A stretch of DNA of 49,759 bases, from positions 1-49,759 of IMG/VR virus record IMGVR_UViG_3300037483_000961. One strand, 5' to 3'. This stretch comes from a virus. Its lineage: Duplodnaviria > Caudoviricetes. Shown piece after piece: positions 5,166 to 28,575 of this stretch. Positions within the stretch are counted from its first letter, which is position 1; each line of letters opens with the position of its first letter. The notes below the pieces were generated by a model. It was not told the DNA's origin, did no database searches, and saw nothing but the letters and a program-made list of their open reading frames with translations. The position numbers and the translations under genes are program-made.

Positions 5166-5708
5166 TTACGTGATAGCTATAGCTTTTGGTTTTCTATTTT
5201 CATTCACAGGAATTTCAACGATCAGCACGCCTTCGTTCCACTTCGTGGAAGCTTTGTCAATATCGTATTTGTCTCCATCCACAACGTATTTATACTTTCC
5301 AGATGTGGACTGTTTTATGCCTGTTCTAACAAGTTTCCATTCTTGAGTTTTTGTTTCTTCATCTTTGGCTATTTTAAGAACCAAATTCCCATCTTTGTAA
5401 GACAACGAAATATTTTCCTTTTTAATACCAGCCAAAGCATATTCAAACTTCAATGCTCCTGTTTCTACGTGAATAGAAACATTAAAAGGCGGAAACGTGT
5501 TTGTCACATTTGCCCACGGATTACCGTTATCCTGAATATACGTATCAATTATTTTCAACGTATAAAGAGGACGAGAAAAATCAACAAACGGAACAGATCC
5601 CCCTGCGCTTATCCTGTTACCCTCATAAGGAACATCAGGGATACAACCAAGAATATCCGAAAACCATGTCGAAGTGCTATTCGACCCAGAAATAGTAGAG
5701 TGTTTCAT
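5166..5708 (-). CDS. Small heat-shock protein (Hsp20/alpha-crystallin)
   Basis: FPPFNV...ALAGIKKENI...GVLIVEIP...KPKAIAI (IxI) motifs. Confidence 0.85.
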   Translation of the reverse strand: MKHSTISGSNSTSTWFSDILGCIPDVPYEGNRISAGGSVPFVDFSRPLYTLKIIDTYIQDNGNPWANVTNTFPPFNVSIHVETGALKFEYALAGIKKENISLSYKDGNLVLKIAKDEETKTQEWKLVRTGIKQSTSGKYKYVVDGDKYDIDKASTKWNEGVLIVEIPVNENRKPKAIAIT

Positions 5709-5825
5709 ATGAACACCTCCGAAAAATAGTTATTCCCTCATACGAGGCGAATTGTGTTTTACGTGCAAGAGCATTCTCGCACGGTTTATTATATCATGTT
5801 TTTGATGTATTTTTCTTTCACGATA

Positions 5826-5899
5826 TGGCCAAGCTGGGATTCGAACCCAGAACACTTAGATTCTAAATCTAAAATCTCTACCGATTGGATTACTTGGCC
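5826..5899 (-). tRNA. tRNA-Leu (anticodon TAG), short variable loop
   Basis: GGCCAAG/CTTGGCC acceptor, TTAGA-TTTAGAA-TCTAA anticodon arm, CTGGG-TTCGAAT-CCCAG T-arm, A73. Confidence 0.85.
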
Positions 5900-6025
5900 T
5901 TTTCTTAGAAATTTGTCAACCCTATTACCACTGAAAATCAAATAATTTATTTAGCAGTAGGCATTTATTTTGTTATTTTGAAACCATTTTGTCCTGGAAT
6001 ATGTACCATTTTCCGGACAAAAAAC

Positions 6026-6096
6026 CACCCTCGCAAGGACTTGAACCTCGACCAGCAGATCCAAATTCTGCCGTGCTACCATTACACCACAAGGGT
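6026..6096 (-). tRNA. tRNA-Gln (anticodon TTG)
   Basis: ACCCTTG/CGAGGGT acceptor, GCAGA-ATTTGGA-TCTGC anticodon arm, TTCAAGT T-loop, G73. Confidence 0.88.
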
Positions 6097-6106
6097 AGAG
6101 TGCGTT

Positions 6107-6349
6107 TTATGGTGCTCCGACAACATCCTTAAAATAAGCTTTGAACATTTCAGTTACTTCTTCAAACGAACCATACGGACCGTAAAGATCATAAATTTCA
6201 TTTTCGAAGTACCACCCCGCTATATACTTTTCACCCCAAGCTGTTACTTTTTCCTTCTTAAAGCAATAAATATACTTATGAACTTTTCCATCCTTATCAA
6301 CATAATAAGAATCACTGGAATCGGCTTTATCAGTTACCATAGTTTTCAC
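6107..6349 (-). CDS. Hypothetical protein
   Basis: 80-aa ORF overlapping the upstream ORF by 4 nt. Confidence 0.65.
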   Translation of the reverse strand: MKTMVTDKADSSDSYYVDKDGKVHKYIYCFKKEKVTAWGEKYIAGWYFENEIYDLYGPYGSFEEVTEMFKAYFKDVVGAP

Positions 6350-6594
6350 AATATACTACTTCCTTTTGCATTAGTTAGTCTATAATCAAGCTCTTCAGAA
6401 TAATACTCAACCATGTCCATCAAATCTTCAGGACAATAAACATACATCAACGATAACGCATCCTGTACTACAGAAGCTTCTTTGTGCGTAAGACCGGAAG
6501 ATGCTATAGATTTCCATATTTCTGCTAACTGTTCAATACAATATTTTCTATCTTGATAAACATGTTCACTCATTAGTTTTATCTTCTTCTCCAT
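6346..6594 (-). CDS. Hypothetical protein
   Basis: 82-aa ORF in a tightly packed minus-strand run. Confidence 0.65.
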   Translation of the reverse strand: MEKKIKLMSEHVYQDRKYCIEQLAEIWKSIASSGLTHKEASVVQDALSLMYVYCPEDLMDMVEYYSEELDYRLTNAKGSSIL

Positions 6595-6868
6595 AATGAA
6601 GAAGCACTTCCGTTAAGCCAATTTCTTTGGCTCTTTTGAAATTACTTCCGCCGTCTGTTACGAATCTTTCTAGTTCTAATTTATAAACTAATCGAAGTGT
6701 TTTCGTAGCTCCTAAATTCTGATACATCTTATAAAAGCGTTCTGCTTCATTTATACAAACCATTCTTTCTTCGTAACTAAAAGGATAAACAGGAAACTTC
6801 AATGTGTATCGTGTTGGCGTAAGAGTCAATCTAATATTTGTAATTCCTTCTTTGGTAAGGACTTCCAT
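6566..6868 (-). CDS. Hypothetical protein
   Basis: 100-aa ORF with AAGGAG RBS. Confidence 0.65.
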   Translation of the reverse strand: MEVLTKEGITNIRLTLTPTRYTLKFPVYPFSYEERMVCINEAERFYKMYQNLGATKTLRLVYKLELERFVTDGGSNFKRAKEIGLTEVLLHYGEEDKTNE

Positions 6869-6897
6869 CGTTGTGGCTCCTTTTTAAAAGGAGACTT

Positions 6898-7083
6898 TCA
6901 AACAATAAATGTTTGTAAAGTAACAGATATCGGTTTTCCATTGCCAAACATTTCTATTGCGGTAAAAAGATCTATACTCATGACACCAACACTCGTTACC
7001 TTAGTAAATTCTTTAATGATTTCTAATATTTTAGATTCTGTTTCTTTTTTCATAACTCTCACTTCATTAATCGTAAGTAGCAT
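6898..7083 (-). CDS. Hypothetical protein
   Basis: 61-aa ORF with AGGAGG RBS. Confidence 0.5.
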   Translation of the reverse strand: MLLTINEVRVMKKETESKILEIIKEFTKVTSVGVMSIDLFTAIEMFGNGKPISVTLQTFIV

Positions 7084-7236
7084 CGTCTCCTCCTGTGTTC
7101 ATTTCCAAAACTATTTGTGCTAATCTGTTTATTATCAAATATACGGTTTGCTCTGGTTGCAACATTTTTTACTTCAGCCCCAAACTGTGGGTGATCATAA
7201 AAAACAGAGCCATAAACTACTTCACCGTAAAGCACA

Positions 7237-7310
7237 TAGCAGGGACAGGACTCGAACCTGCAACCTTCGGGATATGAGCCCGACGAGCTAACCAATTGCT
7301 CTACCCTGCT
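7237..7310 (-). tRNA. tRNA-Met (anticodon CAT), initiator-like
   Basis: AGCAGGG/CCCTGCT acceptor, TCGGG-CTCATAT-CCCGA anticodon arm with three G-C pairs. Confidence 0.9.
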
Positions 7311-7337
7311 AAAACCATCATTTTGTAAAAATTAGTT

Positions 7338-7520
7338 TTAACCACCAAGTGTATCAACTATGCTACGGAACAAAGATAGCACAACACTTGTCCACAATAA
7401 ACTAACAATATAATAAGGCGTCACGTAATCCTTATCTAATATCGACAAGAAAACATTGATTACAGCAATAATCAGTGCTACAATCCTAATAACAACCCAT
7501 ACAATATCTAATACACCCAT
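7338..7520 (-). CDS. Small membrane protein (2 TM)
   Basis: 60 aa, two hydrophobic segments, AGGAGG RBS. Confidence 0.65.
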   Translation of the reverse strand: MGVLDIVWVVIRIVALIIAVINVFLSILDKDYVTPYYIVSLLWTSVVLSLFRSIVDTLGG

Positions 7521-7574
7521 ACGCCCTCCTTAACAAATTTTAAAAAAGCAAAACCTTTTGCCTTTTCTCATATA

Positions 7575-7945
7575 ACCAACGTCCATAATCGAACTGGTAT
7601 CCTACGCAACCGCAGAACATACCCCAAGCCTGTTTACCGGGCTCTCGAAGGTTTCAGTCTTTCCCGATGTCATCGGCTCTTCTCCGTGATTGCGCTGACA
7701 CGAAAAAAAGTGTTCGATTATACCGTTTTGTTTTGTTTCAGCTCTCATCTTCTAATGGATTAGCTCTCCAGTCTAAACGGTTTGACTGATTGACCATCGT
7801 CCTGCGCGACCAGGATACTCAGCTACGATCAGCAGTGTGAACAATAGCGTCCTATTGTCGAGTAGCATCAGTTACCACACCACGTTGTACCGTGTGTACC
7901 ACCACATACTTGTGGTCTCGATGATTCTTGGTCTTTCCCAAGTGT
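7575..7945 (-). ncRNA. Putative large structured non-coding RNA directly 3' of tRNA-Tyr
   Basis: No credible ORF, GC-richer than flanks, many hairpins, long-range helices (ATAATCGAAC/GTTCGATTAT) and a possible pseudoknot; family not identified. Confidence 0.65.
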
Positions 7946-7946
7946 T

Positions 7947-8029
7947 AGCGCCGGGCAGGATTCGAACCTGCAACGTTTCTCGTGTAACGGATTTACAGTC
8001 CGCCCCCTTCACCATTTGGATACCGACGC
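7947..8029 (-). tRNA. tRNA-Tyr (anticodon GTA)
   Basis: GCGTCGG/CCGGCGC acceptor, GCGGA-CTGTAAA-TCCGT arm, long variable arm; discriminator reads U rather than the usual A. Confidence 0.88.
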
Positions 8030-8060
8030 ATATTTTATTCAATAATTGGTTTTTAAAACC

Positions 8061-8118
8061 AACCACATCCACAGAAAACAGGTAGAGTTTCTACCACAAT
8101 TTTTCTGCTTCAGTGGTT
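8061..8118 (-). ncRNA. Conserved 3' hairpin of pentamer array 1
   Basis: AACCAC/GTGGTT, GCAGAAAA/TTTTCTGT, GGTAGA/TCTACC helices; homologous to 14819-14872. Confidence 0.7.
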
Positions 8119-8120
8119 AA

Positions 8121-8291
8121 TTTCCGTTCCGGCCTTGCGTAGCCATGCCCCGCCTATCCTTGTCTTGTCCGGCCCCGCCATGCGTAGCCATGCCCCGCCT
8201 GCCTCGTATCGCCACGCCGTGCCTTACCCAGCCGATCCGCGCCTGCCTTGTGTCGCCACGCCTTTCCGGTCCGTGCCTTACCCTGCCTGCC
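8121..8291 (-). repeat. Pentamer-periodic GGH-NN array 1 (candidate guide-RNA array)
   Basis: 171 nt parse exactly as 31 pentamers plus 4 tetramer delimiters (GGCA x3, GGCC); starts ~22 nt after the accessory gene stop. Confidence 0.9.
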
Positions 8292-8313
8292 GTGTACTAA
8301 AACTTAAAAACTT

Positions 8314-8796
8314 TTACCCTGTAGTCTTGATCTTATCTCGAACTTTTTCGATAACACTTGTCACCATTTTGATTTCGTCACCAAGACCTAACACTTCAGC
8401 AACACCTCTTGCTCTGTTTATTGCTGCATCGGCTCGATCAATTTCCATCATCAATGCACTAATTGCGCGATCTCGATCGTTTCGAAGATCCGCAGCTCGC
8501 GCATATCCTTGCTGGTTTCCTCCAACATCAGGGCTACGAACAAACTCAGGTAAAATCTTTCCTTTCGGACTAAAAGAAACCGTTTCGTATGTAACCAAAA
8601 TTCTTACTCCGCGAATAATACGACGAGCTGTTTCCCGCCAAGCCTGCATAGCAGCCTGATTAACATCCCAATTAAATTGACTGTGCAACGGAGAATTTTC
8701 CTGTTTTGCATCAGCAATTACAATATCAGGCGTTATTCTGCCATGTTGGTTGTATAATTCACGAATCCTATTTTCAACCAAAAGCCTTTGATCCAC
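8314..8796 (-). CDS. Accessory protein of the Cas7-like/pentamer-array locus
   Basis: Start overlaps the stop of the RAMP-like gene; ITPDIVIADAK..NSPLHSQFNWD...AA...R..ARRIIR motif; function unknown. Confidence 0.8.
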   Translation of the reverse strand: MDQRLLVENRIRELYNQHGRITPDIVIADAKQENSPLHSQFNWDVNQAAMQAWRETARRIIRGVRILVTYETVSFSPKGKILPEFVRSPDVGGNQQGYARAADLRNDRDRAISALMMEIDRADAAINRARGVAEVLGLGDEIKMVTSVIEKVRDKIKTTG

Positions 8797-9560
8797 TAAA
8801 CCACCCCCTTGAAACCTCTCTTATCTACTTCACCTACAAACCACGAAAGAAGTTCTTCTGTTTCTTCGTCATACGGTTCTGCTCTGTCCATTCCTGCAAT
8901 CTGGACATCTCGTCCACCTTCAGACATAATCTTTTGAAAACGAATATCTTCAGGATCTACGATTTCAAACTGTCCATACGTACCTGATCCCTTTTCTGGC
9001 CTCCAATCGCCTACTCCTTGGATAAGACCTGCGGCAGAAAAAAGGTTAAAAACGACTGTTTCCTTCAAAATCGGTGTAGGGAAAGCAACTGTTACCTTTG
9101 CTGCCCATTCGGGTACAATACAACGAGTACGGACATCCGGTGTTCGAGCCATGTCAGAACTTCGAGTAATACTCATAAAAAGCTTAGGAATTCCATAAAT
9201 TCCAATCTTTTCCCCTTCAACCCACATAAGACGAGACATTTGTGCCTTCTTAGCGCCAGGGATATCCAATGCTGCGCTGGCGATTGATCGCTTAAACGCT
9301 GTTGACAAATGTGCCAAAAGGGTCGGCGCTGTTTCATCCTTGAGAATATAAGGAGAAGAACGGAATTCCTCAAACGGATTGTGCTTCAGTCCTGAAGCCT
9401 TTTCAGCAGAGGTCTTTCTACCAGACGGCATCAACAACTGGTGTCGAGCCTTTTCCGCAAGTCGATTAAGAATAATCGGTGTACGACCGAGAACGCAAAA
9501 ATCAACTCGGGCCATGTTGATTTCCATCGAAACAATTTCTGTCTGATCTTTTGTAGCCAC
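8796..9560 (-). CDS. Stand-alone Cas7-like RAMP-fold protein
   Basis: GTG start after AGGAGG; beta1 + TP (VDFCVLGRTPIILN), helix AFKRSIASAA, thumb-like segment then PEWAAKVTV, C-terminal glycine loop GLIQGVGDWRPEKGSGTYGQF. Confidence 0.75.
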   Translation of the reverse strand: MATKDQTEIVSMEINMARVDFCVLGRTPIILNRLAEKARHQLLMPSGRKTSAEKASGLKHNPFEEFRSSPYILKDETAPTLLAHLSTAFKRSIASAALDIPGAKKAQMSRLMWVEGEKIGIYGIPKLFMSITRSSDMARTPDVRTRCIVPEWAAKVTVAFPTPILKETVVFNLFSAAGLIQGVGDWRPEKGSGTYGQFEIVDPEDIRFQKIMSEGGRDVQIAGMDRAEPYDEETEELLSWFVGEVDKRGFKGVV

Positions 9561-9605
9561 TGCTACCTCCTATTTTTGTAACTCCATATGAAGTTAATTT
9601 GCAAC

Positions 9606-9634
9606 AACTTACATTATTCCCAAACATAAGTCAA
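9606..9634 (-). promoter_or_regulatory. Possible sigma70 promoter for the RAMP-array operon
   Basis: TTGACT-17 nt-TAAGTT, ~45 nt upstream of the GTG. Confidence 0.4.
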
Positions 9635-9774
9635 GCTGTTTCGGATTTTTCTATAAAAACTATTTCAAAGAGCCTGAAGCACAACGTAAAAATTCATTCG
9701 TACCTTACAATAGTACATTTTTTATTGGAATTCCGTGTGCTTCGTTGCTCTTGGAATAATGTAAACACAGTTTA

Positions 9775-10356
9775 TCATGAATCAGAATTGTTGTCAAGTC
9801 CTTTTAGAATAATAAAGCTCATTATTGTATCAATCTTACGAAACAATTGATCTCGGGAACCTGAATTATCTACTATAAAATCTCCCATAATACGATCTGC
9901 TTCTTTTTCTGATGGATGGTCATCTGTTTCATCCCCTCGTCCAATCATTTTTATTATATATCCACCTCTTTTTCCAATTTCCGAAACCTCAGTATCAGGA
10001 AATCGAACATCGGATATTGATATATTCTGACCTTGGTAGTCTTTGAATAATCTTTTTACCCATAGAGTCCTTCCTGTTTCCTTTTCGAATTCAGGATATA
10101 CAGCAGGCAAGAGCTTCTGCGCCCACTCAGTACCTATATTCTGTGCAATTTGCCTAGGGGATATTCCATAGAACGGATCAATTTGTTCCTTTAGTACCTC
10201 GTCTTCAAAAATAGATATATCCCATCCGAATGCAATACATGCCATTTGTTTTATAGGATGTGCAAAAGATGTTTGTTTATAATCATACTTTGCTTCCAAA
10301 TACGATGCTACGGTGTTTTTACCGGATCTTTTTCGGCCTGCTATTCCTACAATCAA
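9775..10356 (-). CDS. Deoxynucleoside monophosphate kinase (T4 gp1-like)
   Basis: IVGIAGRKRSGKNT P-loop, SFAHPIK, PRQIAQ.IGTE, ISDVRF, H.SE. Confidence 0.9.
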   Translation of the reverse strand: MIVGIAGRKRSGKNTVASYLEAKYDYKQTSFAHPIKQMACIAFGWDISIFEDEVLKEQIDPFYGISPRQIAQNIGTEWAQKLLPAVYPEFEKETGRTLWVKRLFKDYQGQNISISDVRFPDTEVSEIGKRGGYIIKMIGRGDETDDHPSEKEADRIMGDFIVDNSGSRDQLFRKIDTIMSFIILKGLDNNSDS

Positions 10357-10762
10357 GCTCTTCCTCCTGAATCATTTGATCTGTCACATAAAATAATTTA
10401 TCATCGTCGTCCTCGGCCAATGTCGGAGTGGCTATTGTTAACTCTCTGACGATCCAACTAATATAGGAGCTTCTTCGTCCCGTCAATCTGGATAACTCAT
10501 CTTCAGTAATGAATGGATGCAGTTCAATTGCTGTTTGAACCTCCTTCATGAGTTTTTCCTTCGTTACGCAAAAAAATTCCTGTAGAAATGAGATGTCCTC
10601 ATCGTTCACAATATTATCTTTCCCAAAGCCAAACCTATTGCAAACTCTTTTTACTTCTCGATACTTTCTATTGAGGTCTTTTGCGACATGGTGAATATTC
10701 ATTGTAACCTCTATCGTATATTTATTCATAATTATTATAGCACAAAAAAATAATCTTGTCAA
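10319..10762 (-). CDS. Hypothetical protein, possible HTH
   Basis: True start probably downstream (MNIHH, after GAGG) because the track start lies inside the promoter; helical ITEDELSRLTGRR segment. Confidence 0.6.
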   Translation of the reverse strand: MTRLFFCAIIIMNKYTIEVTMNIHHVAKDLNRKYREVKRVCNRFGFGKDNIVNDEDISFLQEFFCVTKEKLMKEVQTAIELHPFITEDELSRLTGRRSSYISWIVRELTIATPTLAEDDDDKLFYVTDQMIQEEELDCRNSRPKKIR

Positions 10763-10816
10763 GTCACAAATTAGACATTTTTTAATATTGACTTTTTTTT
10801 ATGGCTGTGCTATAAT
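10734..10816. promoter_or_regulatory. Divergent back-to-back sigma70 promoters at the strand switch
   Basis: Minus: TTGACA(10762-57)-17-TATAAT(10739-34). Plus: TTGACT(10788-93)-17-TATAAT(10811-16). Both have TGn extended -10. Confidence 0.85.
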
Positions 10817-10848
10817 TACAGTGGACAATTCTATCTTTCGGAGGAACT

Positions 10849-12798
10849 ATGAGAGAAAAAAGAAAGGCACTAAAGCAGGGAGAAGTTAACCTATTTAGTC
10901 CTGAGCAGTATGTATTTGAAGAAATGGAAGAAAATATCTGGGAACACCAATTTAACGTGTCTTCTCATTATTTCAATGAGGAAATCGCAATTAAATACGG
11001 AATAGTCGAAGCAGTAATTTTACAATCTATTGCTTTTTGGATCAAAGAAAACAAGAAAAAATCAATAAACTTTCACCACGGTCTCACTTGGACCTATAAT
11101 TCGGTCAAGGAGATGAAAGAAAAAAGACACAAATATCTGACAGAAGACCAAATCAGGTACGCCCTGGAGGGCCTTGTAAACAAAGGGGTACTCATAAAGG
11201 CCAATCTGAACTCCTGGGCAGCAGACAGAACTCTCTGGTATACGATTATTGATCCATATGTGAGATCCGCTTTTGGACTGCCTTCTTATGCCTTATCTTG
11301 CTTCGATTTTCCCATTTGGGAAAAGACGAAATCCCATTTGGGAAAATCCATAAATGGGGATTCCCATTCCGTAAATTCCCAAATGGATTTGGGAAAATCC
11401 ACAAATGGATTTGGGAAAATCCACAAAGCAATACCAGTTAATAGTAACAAGTTAATAGACAGTCAGATACTAGTATCAATTATTTATCTAAAGATAAATA
11501 ATTCATCAAGCCCAGATTACCCGCTACCGCAGGTAATCCAGGAACCGGATTCAGGAGTCGCTATCGCTCCGCCTGAACCGTTCCCTGTGTTAACTTCGTC
11601 GTCTTCGACTGATTCAAAAAAGCAAAAAGAAACATTATTCGAAACATCAGAAACAATATCTTCCCTGCCTATTAAAAATAATAAACCAATATTCGGCTCG
11701 GCGTTGCCCCCGGCTCGGCCCTCGCTTGTTACGTCACCGAATAAAAAGCTTGTCAAACTAACAACCCGAGAAGCTTTGTTTATTCCTGTCATAGAATTTT
11801 GGAACAAGAAAGCTTCAGAACTCAAAGAGGACAAAATCAATACTCCTGGAATGTATGGTGGATGTCCGAATGTATCCGTTATGAAAATTGATAATTCTGG
11901 ATTTGCGTCAAAAAGCGCAAAAAGCGTTCTTCAGAAAATGGTTCTGTTGGATGCTGGTACCTTTTTCCAACAATACAAAACCATTACCCGATGCACGCAA
12001 CTTCCTGCATTGCGCCACAACACTAAACAAGGATCGTTTACTGAGTCAAAATACAACATTGATGCTATTTTGATGGTTTTGGAAGCTTACTGGCTGAATT
12101 ATAGCCCTGAGTACATGCCTATTAGCAAATCTGCCTTAGCCACAACTATCCATGAGTTCTTTGGTCCAGGAAACGGAGGGAAAAACCAAGATCACAACAC
12201 CACATCATGGTTCTACGAGACCCTTCATCGTCCTGCCGTAAGAAACACAATAGGCGCAAATGGTCTGGAAAGAGTTAAGCAGGATTTCAAAGATGAGATA
12301 ACCAAGATTCATTCTATTTGCGAGGATCTGAAAATTCAACAGCGTAAGCATGTTGCAGAAGAAGTTGTAGCGAGTTTATTCGATGAGTACAACAGGGTAA
12401 ACAGAATTCTAAGTCCGTTGTACATTGATACAGGTTTGAACAATGAGTATGTTCATGCTTTTGGGAATTTCAAAACATATCTGAACGGATTTATTTCTTT
12501 CACTTTGTCCCATTTTGATAAAGTATGGGCTTCACACTTTAGACCGGAAAGGCCTACTTACAGGGAACAATTCAAATCCGCTGTCATGACCAAATACGGG
12601 TTTAACATTTTACCAAATAACTTGGAAGTAAAAAAGCTTGCCCTTGTACGATCTCAGATATTAATCAATCGCGGATGGAAAAACGAAGAAGACCAGATGT
12701 ATGTTGATGGTGAAGTTTCAGGCTATTTTGTTGATGAAGGTTCGATGATAGAGACCGGGAAAATTATTCCTTGGTGGAAACTGGCATCTATTGGGTAA
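10849..12798 (+). CDS. Putative replication initiator (N-terminal winged-helix, phage replisome-organizer-like)
   Basis: IAIKYGIVEAVIL...FWI..N...WTYNS...QIR.AL..LV.KG...DRTLWYTI N-terminal domain; internal DNA repeats; S/P-rich linker. Confidence 0.7.
   Translation: MREKRKALKQGEVNLFSPEQYVFEEMEENIWEHQFNVSSHYFNEEIAIKYGIVEAVILQSIAFWIKENKKKSINFHHGLTWTYNSVKEMKEKRHKYLTEDQIRYALEGLVNKGVLIKANLNSWAADRTLWYTIIDPYVRSAFGLPSYALSCFDFPIWEKTKSHLGKSINGDSHSVNSQMDLGKSTNGFGKIHKAIPVNSNKLIDSQILVSIIYLKINNSSSPDYPLPQVIQEPDSGVAIAPPEPFPVLTSSSSTDSKKQKETLFETSETISSLPIKNNKPIFGSALPPARPSLVTSPNKKLVKLTTREALFIPVIEFWNKKASELKEDKINTPGMYGGCPNVSVMKIDNSGFASKSAKSVLQKMVLLDAGTFFQQYKTITRCTQLPALRHNTKQGSFTESKYNIDAILMVLEAYWLNYSPEYMPISKSALATTIHEFFGPGNGGKNQDHNTTSWFYETLHRPAVRNTIGANGLERVKQDFKDEITKIHSICEDLKIQQRKHVAEEVVASLFDEYNRVNRILSPLYIDTGLNNEYVHAFGNFKTYLNGFISFTLSHFDKVWASHFRPERPTYREQFKSAVMTKYGFNILPNNLEVKKLALVRSQILINRGWKNEEDQMYVDGEVSGYFVDEGSMIETGKIIPWWKLASIG
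11308..11428. repeat. Iteron-like repeats, candidate replication origin inside the initiator gene
   Basis: Four ATTTGGGAAAA copies (11314, 11336, 11387, 11409; two pairs spaced 22 bp) plus inverted TTCCCA half-sites. Confidence 0.7.
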
Positions 12799-12951
12799 TA
12801 TATAATCACAGACAAAAGAATGAATCCTGTTTTCTGCTTCATATAGCCCCGTGGTGAGGCTTTACAGGATATTTTAGAGTATGGATACCACTTAGAAAAA
12901 ACAGGCTCCTAAAAAGCCTGTTTTATGAGTTAGTTATTTTTCAAATACGGC

Positions 12952-12980
12952 TTGACATAATGTTTGTGGTGTGTTATTAT
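12952..12980 (+). promoter_or_regulatory. sigma70-type promoter for the recombinase-SLT-array 2 unit
   Basis: TTGACA-17-TATTAT with TG extension. Confidence 0.7.
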
Positions 12981-13002
12981 GTTTTTGAAATCAGGAGGCA
13001 AC

Positions 13003-13908
13003 ATGACTGAAATAGCGCAAATCAACAGTGCCAATGTGAGCCAACTAACTCAGGAGCAAATTCAGTATGTAATGAATGTATTGAAATTTGAGGAAGCGAA
13101 AGCAAATGTGAAAAAATCATTAGTTAAGCAGGACATGGATATGAGAGCCTTGCTGGATACGTTCCTTGCTCAAAAAAGCATTAATACTCAGAAAACGTAT
13201 CGACCAATTATTCTTGATTTTCTGAACAACGTGTCTCATGTTGTGGATATTACCCCTGTGTTTGTGGATCAGTATATCGAAGAGTTGACAACAAGGTTCT
13301 CACCGGCAACAGTGAGATTAAAGATTTCTGCCTTGAGTAGTTTTGTTTCCAAGATCGTTAGGTGGCAGTACTTGGATCGAAATCCGTTTATTGGATGTGA
13401 GTTGCCCAAAGATGAAAACACTGAAGTGGTGGTTCCGACACAAGAAGAAGTGGTTGCCATATTGGATTACGCTCAAGTTGCTGATAGAAAAATAGTTTTT
13501 GATTCGGTTACCCTGATGTCTGAGCTTGGTGTGCGGGTCGGTGCAATAGAAAAATTGTTCATAGATGTGGAAAAATTGGTATTCGAAAGTGAATCTAAAG
13601 GAAAGAGAATATCAGGAAAGATTTCACAGGACATTCTGGATAAGTTAAATATCCATGAATCTGGTTTTCATTTTTCCCGATATAACAAACCTTTGATACA
13701 GTTTCATCTTGACAAGTGTGTATCGTACCTTGCAAAAATAGGTAAAGTACAAAATAAGATACACGCTCATAGTTTTAGGCATTTTTATGCAGTCAAATTG
13801 TATAAATATACAAAAGATATCTATGAAGTGAGCAGAAAATTACACCATAGTAGTGTTACAATTACGCAACGATATCTACGTTCGATAAATTTACTGGAGG
13901 AACTATGA
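13003..13908 (+). CDS. Tyrosine recombinase (XerC/D-like)
   Basis: ATG 13003 after AGGAGG; SAM-like N-domain; catalytic R (GVRVG), K, HSFRH, H (LHHSS), Y (TQRYL). Confidence 0.9.
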   Translation: MTEIAQINSANVSQLTQEQIQYVMNVLKFEEAKANVKKSLVKQDMDMRALLDTFLAQKSINTQKTYRPIILDFLNNVSHVVDITPVFVDQYIEELTTRFSPATVRLKISALSSFVSKIVRWQYLDRNPFIGCELPKDENTEVVVPTQEEVVAILDYAQVADRKIVFDSVTLMSELGVRVGAIEKLFIDVEKLVFESESKGKRISGKISQDILDKLNIHESGFHFSRYNKPLIQFHLDKCVSYLAKIGKVQNKIHAHSFRHFYAVKLYKYTKDIYEVSRKLHHSSVTITQRYLRSINLLEEL

Positions 13909-14531
13909 GGCATAATACGATTTTACTATTTTTGTGCATGGCGGTAATTAGTTTGGCACCGTTTGGTTATACTAACGTTTCCGATGTAGCCGACCAAGTA
14001 AGTCAGCAAATCGAATATCAATCATTACCAAATTCACCCAGGGATAGAGATGTTGCTCAGTTTTTGTTTGAGTATAACATTGAGTTGGAATTCTGGCTAG
14101 AAGTAATTCCTAATAAAGAACTTGTGTATCAAGTTGTGGATAGTCGTTTGGGTGTTCCAAGATCGTTGGTGTTTGCATTGGTAGCAACAGAAAGCCAGTT
14201 TGTTTCTCATGCAGTAGGAAGAAATCCTGTATCAAAGGATTACGGTTTGTTTCAGTTGAATTCTGTTACGTATAGTGCCTATTCTGTTACTCAGTTGTTG
14301 GATGAAAATGTGAATATTTCTTTAGGACTTAAGCATTTATACGATGAAATGAAGCGGTTTGATTGGGACATGGAGTTGGCTGTAAAGGCGTACAATGCTG
14401 GGCCGTACAGGGTGAGAAAAGGAACTGAGCCTGAATCAACGAAAAGATATTCTCAAAAAGTATTGACACAGAAAGAGAACTATGATATCATGTTTAAAGA
14501 GTTTCGAGCTTCCTTTGGGAAGTATCGTTAA
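13905..14531 (+). CDS. Lytic transglycosylase (SLT domain) with N-terminal signal
   Basis: ALVATESQF (catalytic E), GLFQLN, AYNAG motifs. Confidence 0.9.
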   Translation: MRHNTILLFLCMAVISLAPFGYTNVSDVADQVSQQIEYQSLPNSPRDRDVAQFLFEYNIELEFWLEVIPNKELVYQVVDSRLGVPRSLVFALVATESQFVSHAVGRNPVSKDYGLFQLNSVTYSAYSVTQLLDENVNISLGLKHLYDEMKRFDWDMELAVKAYNAGPYRVRKGTEPESTKRYSQKVLTQKENYDIMFKEFRASFGKYR

Positions 14532-14552
14532 GGTTTTTCAGTTTTAGTACAC

Positions 14553-14816
14553 GGCAGGCAGGGTAAGGCACGGACCGGAAAGGCGTGGCAGGAGAGGCAA
14601 GGTTTGGAATGGCTCGGATGGGACAGGCAAGACAACGCAGGAATGGAATGACAAGGCTCGGAACGGCCCGACAGGGTGATACGAGGCAGGCGCGGATTGG
14701 CTTGGAGCGACCAGGACTGGTGAGTCGGGGCAGGACGGGCAGGGCAAGGAATGGCTCGGATGGGACAGGCAAGACATGATAAGGCATGGCCGGGCGCAAC
14801 GAGGCAGGAACGGAAA
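14553..14816 (+). repeat. Pentamer-periodic GGH-NN array 2 (orphan candidate guide-RNA array)
   Basis: 264 nt parse exactly as 48 pentamers plus 6 tetramer delimiters (GGCA x5, CGCA); 14540-14589 is identical to the reverse complement of 8255-8304. Confidence 0.9.
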
Positions 14817-14818
14817 TT

Positions 14819-14872
14819 AACCACAAAAGCAGAATTTAGTAGAGTGATCTACTGTTTTCTGCGGATGTGGTT
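14819..14872 (+). ncRNA. Conserved 3' hairpin of pentamer array 2
   Basis: AACCACA/TGTGGTT, GCAGAA/TTCTGC, AGTAGA/TCTACT helices with compensatory changes versus the array 1 copy. Confidence 0.7.
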
Positions 14873-14895
14873 GGTTTGAAACTATAGGAGTCAAG

Positions 14896-15132
14896 ATGAG
14901 AAATGTTCAAAATTTAACAGCAAATGAGATACTAAATGCGACAAAACCTCACCATATATTCACCCGAGATAACTATAAAAATGAATACAGATTATTGGCA
15001 AAAAAATGGCACCCAGATGCAGGTGGCGACGATCAAGTTTTTCAACATATTGCTATTTTGTACAGTGAGGCGGAAAAATCAATATCCGACCATCACTGGG
15101 GGTTTGCTGGATCTTACGAGGATTCCAAGTAG
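14896..15132 (+). CDS. Small J-domain protein
   Basis: YRLLAKKWHPD motif; AGGAG RBS; 78 aa, possibly truncated. Confidence 0.75.
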   Translation: MRNVQNLTANEILNATKPHHIFTRDNYKNEYRLLAKKWHPDAGGDDQVFQHIAILYSEAEKSISDHHWGFAGSYEDSK

Positions 15133-15172
15133 GATGGACACAAGCTATATCTTTGAAAAATAAGGAAACAAA

Positions 15173-15499
15173 ATGAAGTGGACCGTAAGCAAACATATTC
15201 AAGAAAAGATAACAATGCTGTCTATGACCATAGATATGGCTATGATTATTTTCGAACAATTGAGGAGTAACCATAATATTGTAGCTCTTATCAGGAGAAA
15301 ACTCGAACGAAGAGAAATAGCTGAGGTACCTATAGAATCCATTCACGATAAATATCTTGAATGTTTACATAAAACAGGATTGCATTATTATTTTTTCCCA
15401 TCTTACGGAGCTATTCCGTTTGCTTGGAGTCCTAATATGTGGTTTGTAAATTTCTTATCAGAGAACAATATAGAAATTTATGAACAAATATTACGATAA
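15173..15499 (+). CDS. Hypothetical protein
   Basis: 108-aa ORF, AAGGA RBS. Confidence 0.6.
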   Translation: MKWTVSKHIQEKITMLSMTIDMAMIIFEQLRSNHNIVALIRRKLERREIAEVPIESIHDKYLECLHKTGLHYYFFPSYGAIPFAWSPNMWFVNFLSENNIEIYEQILR

Positions 15500-25398: not shown

Positions 25399-28300
25399 AT
25401 GCCTATTGAATTTTTAAACGACGACAAACAGCCATTATCTGCAATCATTCACCATATGAAATATGCTCGGTATCTTGAAGATAAAAAGCGAAGAGAAACA
25501 TGGGAAGAAACTGTTGAACGAAATAAACAAATGCACCTAAAGAAGTATAGTAAAAACATTCAAGAATTTCCTGAACTGAGAGAAGATATTGAGGAATTAT
25601 ACAATAAGTATGTTTTTACAGGAAAGGTTCTTCCGTCTATGAGGGCGCTTCAGTTTGGAGGAAGGCCCATAGAGCTTAATCCTGTTCGTCAGTTCAACTG
25701 TTCGTTTCTGCATGTATCGGATCAAGTTGCTTTTTCGGAAGCTTTATTCTGTTTACTATCAGGAACAGGGGTGGGATATTCTGTTCAAAAACACCACATC
25801 GAACAATTACCTCCAATCTTAGGAGTACAAAAGGACAACATCAAACGTTTTCTAATCGGTGACTCAATAGAAGGATGGTCTGATGCAGTTAAAGTATTGA
25901 TAAAGTCTTATTTTGAAGGTAGCGAAGATGTTGAATTTGATTTTAGAGATATACGATCCAAAGGTACGCGACTAGTAACTTCAGGAGGTAAAGCTCCTGG
26001 ACCTGAACCACTGAGACTTGCTCTTATTCAAATAAAATCTATTTTTGAAAATGCTTTACAAACTAGAGGATTTGGTACGAAACTTAAACCTATTGAAGCC
26101 CACGATTTGATGTGCTATTTGGCCGACGCTGTATTGTCAGGAGGAATTAGAAGAGCAGCAATGATTTCTCTTTTTAGTTTTGATGATCATGAGATGTTAG
26201 AATCAAAGTTTGGTGCTTTCTGGGAATTAAATCCTCAAAGACAAAGAGCTAATAATTCTGCTGTTATTCTGAGGGATAGGATCACTGAAGATGAGTTTTG
26301 GAATTTCTGGAGAAAAATAGAAGAATCGAAAAAAGGAGAACCTGGAATATTTTTTACGAATAATAGAGATCTGGGCACAAACCCATCACTAAGAGCAGGG
26401 ACTAAAGTTTTAACTAAGTCAGGTATAGTACCCATAGAGAAACTACAAGATACATCTTTTGAAGTCCCTAATTTGGATGGACATTGGAGCTATGCACAAT
26501 GTTGGAAGTCTGGAGAGAATATAAGATTATGGAAACTAAAATTTGATAATGGTGTAGAATATTTCTCATCTCCGCAGCATGAATGGCCTGTTTATAACAA
26601 TGGTAGATACCTAAAGTGCCAAAGTAATAAATTAAAGCCTGGAGACAGGATGCCCATAAACGCATTTAACAGAAAAGAATTATTTGAAGGAACTAAAGGT
26701 ACTTATGATATTGGATTTGTAATAGGGTGGTTATACGGAGATGGTTCTTTGACAAAACGATCTGATACTGGAAAATACGTAGCTTCTTTTGTTGTTTCGA
26801 AAAAAGAAACCGAGGTATTAGATATATTACTGAATACAATTAATCAGATAGACGGAGTCAGTAGAAAGTTATATGAAAGAAATTCTGTTTTTGAATTCCA
26901 AGTCGGATCTCCTAAATTTATAAATTTAATTATGAATGAGTATGGCGTAAATAAAAAGGAAAAAGGCATACCTGCAAATTTGTGGACCCAGTGGAACGAC
27001 ACTTGTATACGAGGATTCATCGATGGTTTATTTTCTGCTGATGGACATATAAGTGCTGACTCTCATGGGATAAATATTGTTTCTTCTAGAGAGAAATTAG
27101 TAAAAGATGTACAAGAATTATTAGGTTTTTATGGTATTAAATCTAATATTAGCCACAAGTCAATTCGTGGAGGCGCTTTCCCTAATAAAAAAACATATGA
27201 CAAAGAATACAACAGCTATGTGCTACGAACAACACTATCAGGAAGATTGAAATTTCATGAGTTATTTCAATTATCTGTACATCACAAACAAAAAAATCTT
27301 TCTGAAACTAAACAAATTGATAAGAGTACTATAAATCAGCAATTTATGATACTAAGGTCAATTGAAGAAACAAATATTCATGAAGATGTTTGGGATATAT
27401 CTGTAAAAGATAGTACCCACTGTTTTCATCTGTCTACTGTCACTACCGGCAATTGCAGCGAAATCAGTTTGAAAGATCAAGAATTCTGTAATTTAACCGA
27501 AATCAATGCTTCTAATATTGTATCCCAAGAGGATTTAGAGGGTAGAGTTTGGGCAGCCACACTTCTCGGTACACTACAAGCCGGATATGTAAATTTTCAT
27601 TATTTGAGGTCTGGGTGGAAAAAGAATGGAGAAAAAGAAGCATTGCTAGGTGTGTCTATGACAGGAGTATGTTCGCCGATAATTGAAACACTGGATATTA
27701 AAAAGGCTTCTTCGCTCACCAAGTCAATAAATAGCAAATATGCTAAAATGATAGGGATTAAAGAATCTAGACGTATAACAGCTATAAAACCAGCCGGAAC
27801 AACGAGTCTTGTCTTAGGAACTTCTTCAGGAATACACGCATGGCACAATGATTACTATTTAAGACGAGTGAGAGTAAATAAAAATGAAGCTATTTATGTT
27901 TACCTGAATATGTTCTACCCTGAACTTTTAGAAGATGATTATTTCTCTCCCGAGAAATCTGCTGTAATTACAGTACCACAAAAAGCACCAGAAGGTGCTG
28001 TATTAAGAACTGAATCCCCGATAGACACATTAGAAAGAGTCAAGTCATTTCACAGAAATTGGATAAAACCCGGACATAGACAAGGAGATAACACCCACAA
28101 TGTAAGTTGCACTATTAGCATAAAAGATGAAGAATGGCAAACAGTAGGACAATGGATGTGGTTAAATAGGGACCATTATACTGGAATATCTGTGCTTCCT
28201 TATGATGGAGGAACATATATTCAACCTCCGTTCGAGGATTTGGTAGACGGATATGTGTTTAAATTATCTAACGGCGAAGTGATACGAAATAAAGCTTCTG

Positions 28301-28575
28301 ATGATATGCTAACAGTGAAGTTCAATGGAGATGAAAAAACAGAAACAAAAACAGTTTCAGAACTTGCTAATAATTTTTCTGATTACAAATTACGCAGCTT
28401 AAAAGGTTCTTTTGAGGATATAAACTCTATTAAATATATGACAAAAAAGGAGCAATATGAAGAATTAGTACAAAAACTAAAATCGGTGGATGTAAGTTTT
28501 GTTCCTGAAGAAGAAGACGGAACTGATCTATCAGGAGAATTAGCATGTGCAGGCGGAGCTTGCGAAGTAAAATAA
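25399..28575 (+). CDS. nrdJ: Class II (B12-dependent) ribonucleotide reductase containing an intein
   Basis: RRETWEE, FNCSF, GTGVG, GGIRRAA, NP/CSEI split by the intein, TAIKPAGTTS, C-terminal CAGGAC. Confidence 0.93.
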   Translation: MPIEFLNDDKQPLSAIIHHMKYARYLEDKKRRETWEETVERNKQMHLKKYSKNIQEFPELREDIEELYNKYVFTGKVLPSMRALQFGGRPIELNPVRQFNCSFLHVSDQVAFSEALFCLLSGTGVGYSVQKHHIEQLPPILGVQKDNIKRFLIGDSIEGWSDAVKVLIKSYFEGSEDVEFDFRDIRSKGTRLVTSGGKAPGPEPLRLALIQIKSIFENALQTRGFGTKLKPIEAHDLMCYLADAVLSGGIRRAAMISLFSFDDHEMLESKFGAFWELNPQRQRANNSAVILRDRITEDEFWNFWRKIEESKKGEPGIFFTNNRDLGTNPSLRAGTKVLTKSGIVPIEKLQDTSFEVPNLDGHWSYAQCWKSGENIRLWKLKFDNGVEYFSSPQHEWPVYNNGRYLKCQSNKLKPGDRMPINAFNRKELFEGTKGTYDIGFVIGWLYGDGSLTKRSDTGKYVASFVVSKKETEVLDILLNTINQIDGVSRKLYERNSVFEFQVGSPKFINLIMNEYGVNKKEKGIPANLWTQWNDTCIRGFIDGLFSADGHISADSHGINIVSSREKLVKDVQELLGFYGIKSNISHKSIRGGAFPNKKTYDKEYNSYVLRTTLSGRLKFHELFQLSVHHKQKNLSETKQIDKSTINQQFMILRSIEETNIHEDVWDISVKDSTHCFHLSTVTTGNCSEISLKDQEFCNLTEINASNIVSQEDLEGRVWAATLLGTLQAGYVNFHYLRSGWKKNGEKEALLGVSMTGVCSPIIETLDIKKASSLTKSINSKYAKMIGIKESRRITAIKPAGTTSLVLGTSSGIHAWHNDYYLRRVRVNKNEAIYVYLNMFYPELLEDDYFSPEKSAVITVPQKAPEGAVLRTESPIDTLERVKSFHRNWIKPGHRQGDNTHNVSCTISIKDEEWQTVGQWMWLNRDHYTGISVLPYDGGTYIQPPFEDLVDGYVFKLSNGEVIRNKASDDMLTVKFNGDEKTETKTVSELANNFSDYKLRSLKGSFEDINSIKYMTKKEQYEELVQKLKSVDVSFVPEEEDGTDLSGELACAGGACEVK
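26386..27453 (+). mobile_element. Intein with LAGLIDADG homing endonuclease (356 aa)
   Basis: Starts SLRAGTKVLT, block B SPQHEW, LAGLIDADG motifs GWLYGDG and GLFSADG, ends VWDISV...TTGN before Cys+1. Confidence 0.92.

Follow-up and report, generated by a model that had tools for sequence, protein, structure and literature searches.

A pentamer array beside a vipr-like gene in a viral genome: a probable staggered VIPR RNA with several guides

The vipr locus and its two arrays

The stretch of DNA analyzed here ("the window", 49,759 nt) is a whole virus record, IMGVR_UViG_3300037483_000961, and carries genes for replication, an integrase gene, and six tRNAs. Among DNA data sets, the one that best contains it is a sediment metagenome, possibly the origin of the phage; no RNA data set was listed as containing it. 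A search for relatives of this phage via its DNA polymerase found none. Its class II ribonucleotide reductase gene (25399-28575, plus strand) carries an intein and a LAGLIDADG domain. On the minus strand, a vipr gene is followed by a vap-like gene and then by the first of two pentamer arrays; the second array lies elsewhere, on the plus strand. The features are these:

9769..9797, minus strand: promoter-like site upstream of vipr, a consensus match only (10/12 with TG)
8796..9560, minus strand: vipr, 254 aa, RAMP/Cas7-like fold, AlphaFold pLDDT 84
8314..8796, minus strand: vap-like accessory gene, 160 aa, mostly helical, model pLDDT 89, phrog_15946
8292..8304, minus strand: leader of array 1, opening a 50-nt block that recurs unchanged in array 2
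8121..8291, minus strand: array 1, with three predicted guide units, four 4-nt marks, and a 2-pentamer stub, 171 nt in total
8248..8287, minus strand: predicted guide unit 1, 8 pentamers
8204..8243, minus strand: predicted guide unit 2, 8 pentamers
8135..8199, minus strand: predicted guide unit 3, 13 pentamers; a stretch of 20 nt is duplicated internally (starts 8200 and 8155)
8055..8124, minus strand: 3' hairpin of array 1, -29.9 kcal/mol, z -5.4, a stability reached by none of 200 shuffles
14540..14816, plus strand: array 2, with a leader, units of 6, 9, 9, 8, and 14 pentamers, and a stub; repeat part 14553-14816
14814..14877, plus strand: 3' hairpin of array 2, -32.1 kcal/mol, z -7.7, 85% column identity with the array 1 tail

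Promoter-like sites number seven in the region, compared to 3.5 in shuffles.

Of 1716 candidate proteins, 1404 are homologs of the 254-aa protein. Pfam gives no match for it or for the 160-aa ORF. Its model, when searched with Foldseek, has Csm and type VII Cas7-family chains as top matches (E 4e-5), and VIA-align places it on 9g9a_D with Z 9.1 and an rmsd of 3.6 over 150 aligned residues. Alignment to the Vipr of SUSP1 by hhalign gives a probability of 92.8 (E 3.9e-7) over 52 columns. The SUSP1 ORF used for this match agrees with the Vipr of the cryo-EM paper at H17, R138, D177, W178, and R179. The equivalents of R138, D177, and R179 in the window protein are R146, D185, and R187, and these are kept in 129, 128, and 129, respectively, of 129 homologous proteins. 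The window protein is a RAMP-fold Vipr, having the G-loop and thumb residues, and it stands outside a CRISPR locus. Distant Vipr homologs (27-31% identity), annotated as hypothetical, also occur in 32 Mycobacterium and Gordonia phage records.

The accessory gene has a counterpart in 126 of the 139 vipr loci having at least 1500 nt of downstream sequence. Its protein matches no solved structure in Foldseek at E ≤ 0.001, a search in which no nuclease fold was found, and in the Atlas it meets unnamed viral clusters only. The locus is a viral one reduced to vipr and a single vap gene, the minimal composition by which a VIPR locus is recognized.

In SUSP1, one Vipr subunit sits on each pentamer, where the GGY is held by the protein and the NN is paired to DNA with a one-base skip; silencing is by binding, as transcriptional repression (bioRxiv 2026.04.26.720920, and the accessible part of 2026.04.26.720927). 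Array 1 is built from similar pentamers. Read on the minus strand from 8291 to 8121, it consists of runs of 8, 8, 13, and 2 GGH-NN pentamers, each run preceded by a 4-nt mark; the marks are GGCA at 8291-8288, 8247-8244, and 8203-8200, and GGCC at 8134-8131. The original prediction, made from the letters of this stretch, had given these letters and their 4-nt phase shifts exactly, and was also correct in assigning 44 nt to each of the first two units. The pentamer periodicity that it claimed is real as well, as GG pairs at lag 5 occur 20 times in array 1, more than in any of 5000 dinucleotide shuffles (mean 8.0, sd 2.5, maximum 17). It had further held that the third base is never G. In the two window arrays, the base after GG is C in 34 cases, A in 24, T in 6, and G in none (n = 64), and in homologs it is G in 89 of 8152. 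GGA makes up 38% of the GG pentamers of the window; its scaffold is GGH, not strict GGY. The repeat tract of array 1 has no significant fold of its own (z -1.9). A tRNA-Tyr gene starts 26 nt behind the array 1 hairpin.

A scan of the whole window for such arrays gave one in addition to array 1. This is array 2, which follows a transglycosylase gene, at a distance of 5 kb from vipr and with no vipr adjoining. It shares with the leader and first unit of array 1 a 50-nt block that is 100% identical, and a 29-nt block is duplicated between two of its units. Unit 2 of array 2 has a variant in one low-depth contig from another study, where 4 of 30 letters are changed (three in NN, one in H, none in GG); this is weak evidence. 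A structured 3' tail follows the repeats of both arrays, as a single hairpin for each array, with no tail for each guide. Between these two hairpins, the loops differ and the stems are kept, with, on our reading of the alignment, one G-C changed to A-U and one G-U to G-C, a comparison of two sequences only. When viral contigs were scanned for the tail motif, three matches were obtained, none adjoining an array.

Array grammar across homologs

The homologs come from 163 viral and metagenome loci; counting the window, an array is present in 144 of 164 sources. They provide 143 non-redundant arrays, drawn from 123 loci. Where these arrays depart from the 5-nt step, the departure is one of 4 nt in 1073 of 1226 cases (88%), with a parser that penalizes steps of 3, 4, 6, and 7 nt equally. 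The 1073 marks thus defined read GGCA in 684 cases, GGCG in 137, and GGCT in 73, and within single arrays the dominant mark is 77% pure. Among arrays with at least two shifts, 82 of 127 have a mark close to their start and 80 of 114 have one close to their end, where chance would give approximately 32%. Rfam searches of 18 homolog loci found no ribozymes.

Units, too, have a preferred size. Their median length in homologs is nine pentamers, and 74% of 617 clean units have 8-12, compared to 18% with random placement; the guide size of about 8-14 that was originally proposed is in line with this. One-pentamer units account for 25 of the 617. Of 121 homolog arrays, 10 have blocks of four pentamers in common between units, where 1.1 would be expected.

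The entropies at the five pentamer positions, over 143 arrays, are 0.59, 0.87, 1.49, 1.95, and 1.99 bits, where the scaffold values are somewhat low by construction, as the parser rewards GG and penalizes a third G. The expectation that NN would be more variable than GGH across homologs is thereby upheld. Beside delimiters, NN is slightly constrained (3.62 and 3.69 bits, versus 3.94 inside).

One part of the original grammar has a narrower reach. The pentamer before a delimiter was said usually to lose its GG. It does so in the two window arrays (7 of 8 cases, versus 8 of 71 elsewhere; Fisher p 1.6e-5), but not clade-wide, where GG is missing from 127 of 552 pre-mark pentamers (23%) and from 940 of 4491 interior pentamers (21%). 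The loss is seen again in three homologous loci (L004, 4/4; L005, 2/3; L128, 6/9). It is an extension of the boundary motif belonging to a sub-clade, that of the window, L004, L005, and L128.

Several variations deserve mention in their own right. The class of mark tracks the Vipr sub-clade, with GGCA or GGCT followed by GG in one case and GGCG followed by GT in the other, a correlation from which phylogeny is not removed. GGCA is absent from all 15 arrays whose Vipr has P at position 87 and is present in 54 of the 63 whose Vipr has T there. The fraction of GGA runs from 0 to 1 across 129 loci, and the scaffold of L182 (11247-11389) is almost all GGA. A scan of Vipr residues against this fraction gave column 91 as the best, at p 4e-5, uncorrected and with phylogeny not removed; no change in a binding pocket is claimed from this, because the mapping of SUSP1 E71/M72 is uncertain. 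In alphaproteobacterial arrays (L185, L187, L192, L195), the first mark is preceded by two single pentamers with a step of 7 nt, GGATCAY, lying between them. This step recurs twice inside L192 and is perhaps the leader of a sub-array. In L010 (2724-3252), the array is broken by approximately 170 nt of non-pentamer sequence, for which Rfam has no match at gathering score.

Targets of individual units

What the runs between marks might recognize was asked first of the homologs at large. Comparison of 964 units with 1.77 Mb of carrier loci gave only a slight excess of matches for a 1-nt skip; it pointed to Bradyrhizobium prophages. Here, one unit of L201, with at most two mismatches, finds matches in 10 of 171 genomes, compared to one for its reversed control; three of these matches represent one homologous prophage gene.

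The target test itself used 17 units from four carriers, defined as segments of at least seven pentamers preceded by a 4-nt step, against sister prophages with the carriers excluded. For Bradyrhizobium, that prophage gene as query retrieved related prophages in 12 of 401 genomes; for Methylobacterium, the tail sheath of the L192 carrier retrieved them in 9 of 146. The Vipr proteins of these homologs are 37-39% identical to that of the window.

Eight of the 17 delimiter-bounded units match virion genes of sister prophages at a shuffle p ≤ 0.05, six of them at the floor of 0.005, and every one of the eight scores better with a 1-nt skip than with skips of 0, 2, or 3. One of the eight (L201 unit 3) had chosen the Bradyrhizobium database and is not, of course, independent. 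No significant match in sister prophages was found for the other nine. Matches include 20/20 bases in two prophages and 16/16 in four; others are 14/14, and 22/22 across the 11 dinucleotides that precede the last of 12. For all eight units, the sense NN-x frame is open in the printed context, and the skip is the third codon base, the wobble position. Judged from these matches, targeting with a 1-nt skip placed on wobble holds in homologous arrays of two genera (8 of 17 units). In a broader set of 74 alphaproteobacterial units, seven beat all controls, two of them clearly, and 67 are no better than controls.

The sites are separate. Five Bradyrhizobium units go to four different ORFs, and two of the Bradyrhizobium target genes match transglycosylase and tail/tail-collar PHROGs. 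In Methylobacterium, the tail sheath gene has the sites a short way downstream of it, those of three consecutive L192 units being 1.7-2 kb apart. For two adjacent L196 units, the sites are in reversed order and separated by 288 nt; the second unit has p 0.095, or an expectation of 0.03 once its last pentamer is trimmed off. Nor do matches run on past a mark: the delimiter dinucleotide is fully matched at 0 of 14 junctions (3 of 28 bases), and extension into neighboring units matches 55 of 180 bases. Thus, the proposal that the tetramers bound individual guides finds support in homologs, where neighbors match separate sites, matches end at the delimiter, and the delimiter dinucleotide is left unpaired. 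The guides also differ from the homologous sites of their own carriers, by 2-5 bases in five of five Bradyrhizobium cases, compared to 0-3 in sister prophages.

In L192 (10001-11853) and L195, the VIPR cassette is itself within the tail module of myovirus-like prophages. Four L192 guides match that same tail module in sister prophages.

The window's own units gave no target. Exact 16-base gapped scans of viral contigs, made for four of its eight units, gave 59, 22, 16, and 11 matches, with no convincing extension or convergence. For unit 2 of array 2, 8 of the 59 extend to 18 bases, in three unrelated groups; unit 3 of array 1 has no match with fewer than five mismatches of 26. A candidate target for unit 2 of array 1 was rejected. 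Two identical matches fall within a ribonucleotide reductase that shares 38% identity with the one encoded in the window, adjoining what we take to be the active-site loop, and two lie in another gene family, and these are inseparable from chance. Within the window there are no self-targets, the best having 3 mismatches in 16, or 2 in 12 for the 6-pentamer unit.

Proposed separate guides, predicted cutting at the marks, and comparison with known systems

The array beside this Vipr-like RAMP gene is, we believe, likely to be a staggered multi-guide VIPR RNA. Best supported are the repeat grammar, the fold, the homology to Vipr, and the separate targets of units in homologs. That the runs between marks are independent guides is, from the target matches, highly probable; that the RNA is cut at the marks is a prediction that we consider probable, with slightly less assurance than the reading as a whole. 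Several considerations count against that reading. No target was found for the four window units scanned in viral contigs, target support coming from distant homologs. Among these, nine of the 17 units have no significant match, one of the eight that do is not independent, and the broader comparisons (964 units, and 74 alphaproteobacterial ones) showed little beyond controls. No nuclease was identified. Further, perturbing GGY abolished silencing in SUSP1, with GGA among the substitutions tested (bioRxiv 2026.04.26.720920, fig. S12B), and the window scaffold has 38% GGA.

The rival that survives best accepts separate guides but leaves the RNA uncut. Here, several Vipr filaments would form one after another on a long transcript, with the 4-nt step serving only to stop the register from running on. 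This fits all of the target data equally, and it sits well with a single 3' hairpin per array, with an accessory protein in which Foldseek finds no nuclease fold, and with an Rfam scan of 5500-15300 that returned tRNAs only, with no hammerhead or other RNA. Breaking a register, however, needs neither a mark specific in sequence (GGCA in 684 of 1073, and the purity within arrays noted above) nor marks at both array ends. The legend to fig. S18 of bioRxiv 10.64898/2026.04.26.720920 also mentions processed vrRNAs, although the sRNA-seq in the main text confirms only the other two architectures, the ribozyme and single-vrRNA layouts. On balance, we regard an uncut transcript as unlikely.

Far less probable is the view that the 4-nt steps are tolerated slippage deletions in one long guide, or in a decaying repeat, with no role as boundaries. 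Duplications do occur, of course, as in unit 3 of array 1 (20 nt), between units of array 2 (29 nt), and at the excess over expectation seen in homologs, and one-pentamer units exist. Slippage would not, however, be expected to make 88% of breaks exactly 4 nt with narrow spacing, and it is largely refuted by adjacent units whose matches end at marks and whose targets are distant from one another. Least probable of all is a repeat that codes for low-complexity protein, or that binds proteins as DNA, in place of a guide RNA. The 174-aa plus-strand ORF (8135-8659) that overlaps array 1 could be cited in its favor, but no minus-strand ORF of at least 55 aa covers that array. Of 145 arrays, 143 are on the coding strand of vipr or, in the window, are oriented as given above, and it is through its NN positions that the repeat matches distant genes in gapped form.

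For the multi-guide array, a course of events can be proposed. The vipr gene, the vap gene, and the array would be transcribed together, each unit being a separate guide against rival phages. The 4-nt step would break the 5-nt register of the filament, such that one filament ends and a site is exposed, and this site would probably be cut by Vipr or by a host RNase, leaving each guide bounded by a mark at both sides. The 3' hairpin would cap the transcript, and array 2 would add guides in trans. Because blocks are shared between units, both in the window (20 and 29 nt) and in homologs (10 of 121 arrays), recombination of blocks between units may be one source of new guides.

A more speculative hypothesis, which we consider possible but doubtful, takes the 4-nt mark to be a minimal proto-CRISPR repeat. 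Under it, the Vipr filament would read the register break and cut there, so that one RAMP protein both matures and deploys a polycistronic array of guides without Cas6 or ribozymes; the sequence of the mark (GGCA-GG versus GGCG-GT) would be suited to the sub-clade of the protein, and recombination of pentamer blocks between units would generate new guides.

The window array is a probable member of the VIPR staggered arrays, and neither family nor layout is new; both are in a 2026 preprint, and the grammar adds nothing new to them. "Staggered arrays with overlapping vrRNAs", with a 1-nt overlap, are named there (bioRxiv 10.64898/2026.04.26.720920, fig. S18 legend). If, as that legend implies, the 1-nt overlap of guides is the 4-nt step, it is found at 4 of 4 marks in array 1 and at the 1073 homolog steps. 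Orphan vrRNAs are known already (accessible part of 2026.10.15.759431, in which the word "stagger" has no occurrence), as are non-canonical pentamer motifs (accessible part of 2026.10.21.760802). A literature search on the staggering and processing of VIPR and vrRNA found no paper that tests staggered arrays, and the text and legends of 2026.04.26.720920 hold neither sRNA-seq nor target analysis for them. Compared to the arrays as published, the units in homologs here match separate sites and leave the overlap dinucleotide unpaired. What is new is this target-level support, in two bacterial genera, for 4-nt marks that set independent guides apart without contributing to targeting themselves. 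Named pairs of guide and target, in turn, make the maturation of staggered arrays directly testable.

With the type II VIPR of SUSP1 and P. fulva, the system shares a homologous RAMP protein with the same G-loop and thumb residues and, in homologs, the code with a 1-nt skip on wobble and targets in related phages with mismatch to self. SUSP1 guides are stand-alone tracts of 12-16 pentamers, with no 4-nt step and a tail for each; in the window, the predicted guides follow directly on one another, with a single 3' hairpin to an array. Unlike SUSP1, the scaffold is GGH with its share of GGA, Vipr has 254 aa rather than 195, and the accessory protein has no BLAST similarity to its SUSP1 counterpart.

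Class 1 CRISPR, with its Cas7/Csm3 backbones, offers the wider comparison. There, too, a RAMP filament lies on a guide RNA, and several guides are held in one transcript with a fixed mark at both sides of each, where filament and transcript are in our case predicted. Unlike Class 1 CRISPR arrays, those of the window have no long repeats and no contiguous spacers, and a Pfam scan of 27 window ORFs finds no Cas match; unlike a CRISPR repeat, the mark is 4 nt and is predicted to work by register. If the register break alone yields single guides, programmable DNA binding could be multiplexed very compactly, with 44-54 nt for each guide, and such arrays would be candidates for an intermediate between those of VIPR and CRISPR.
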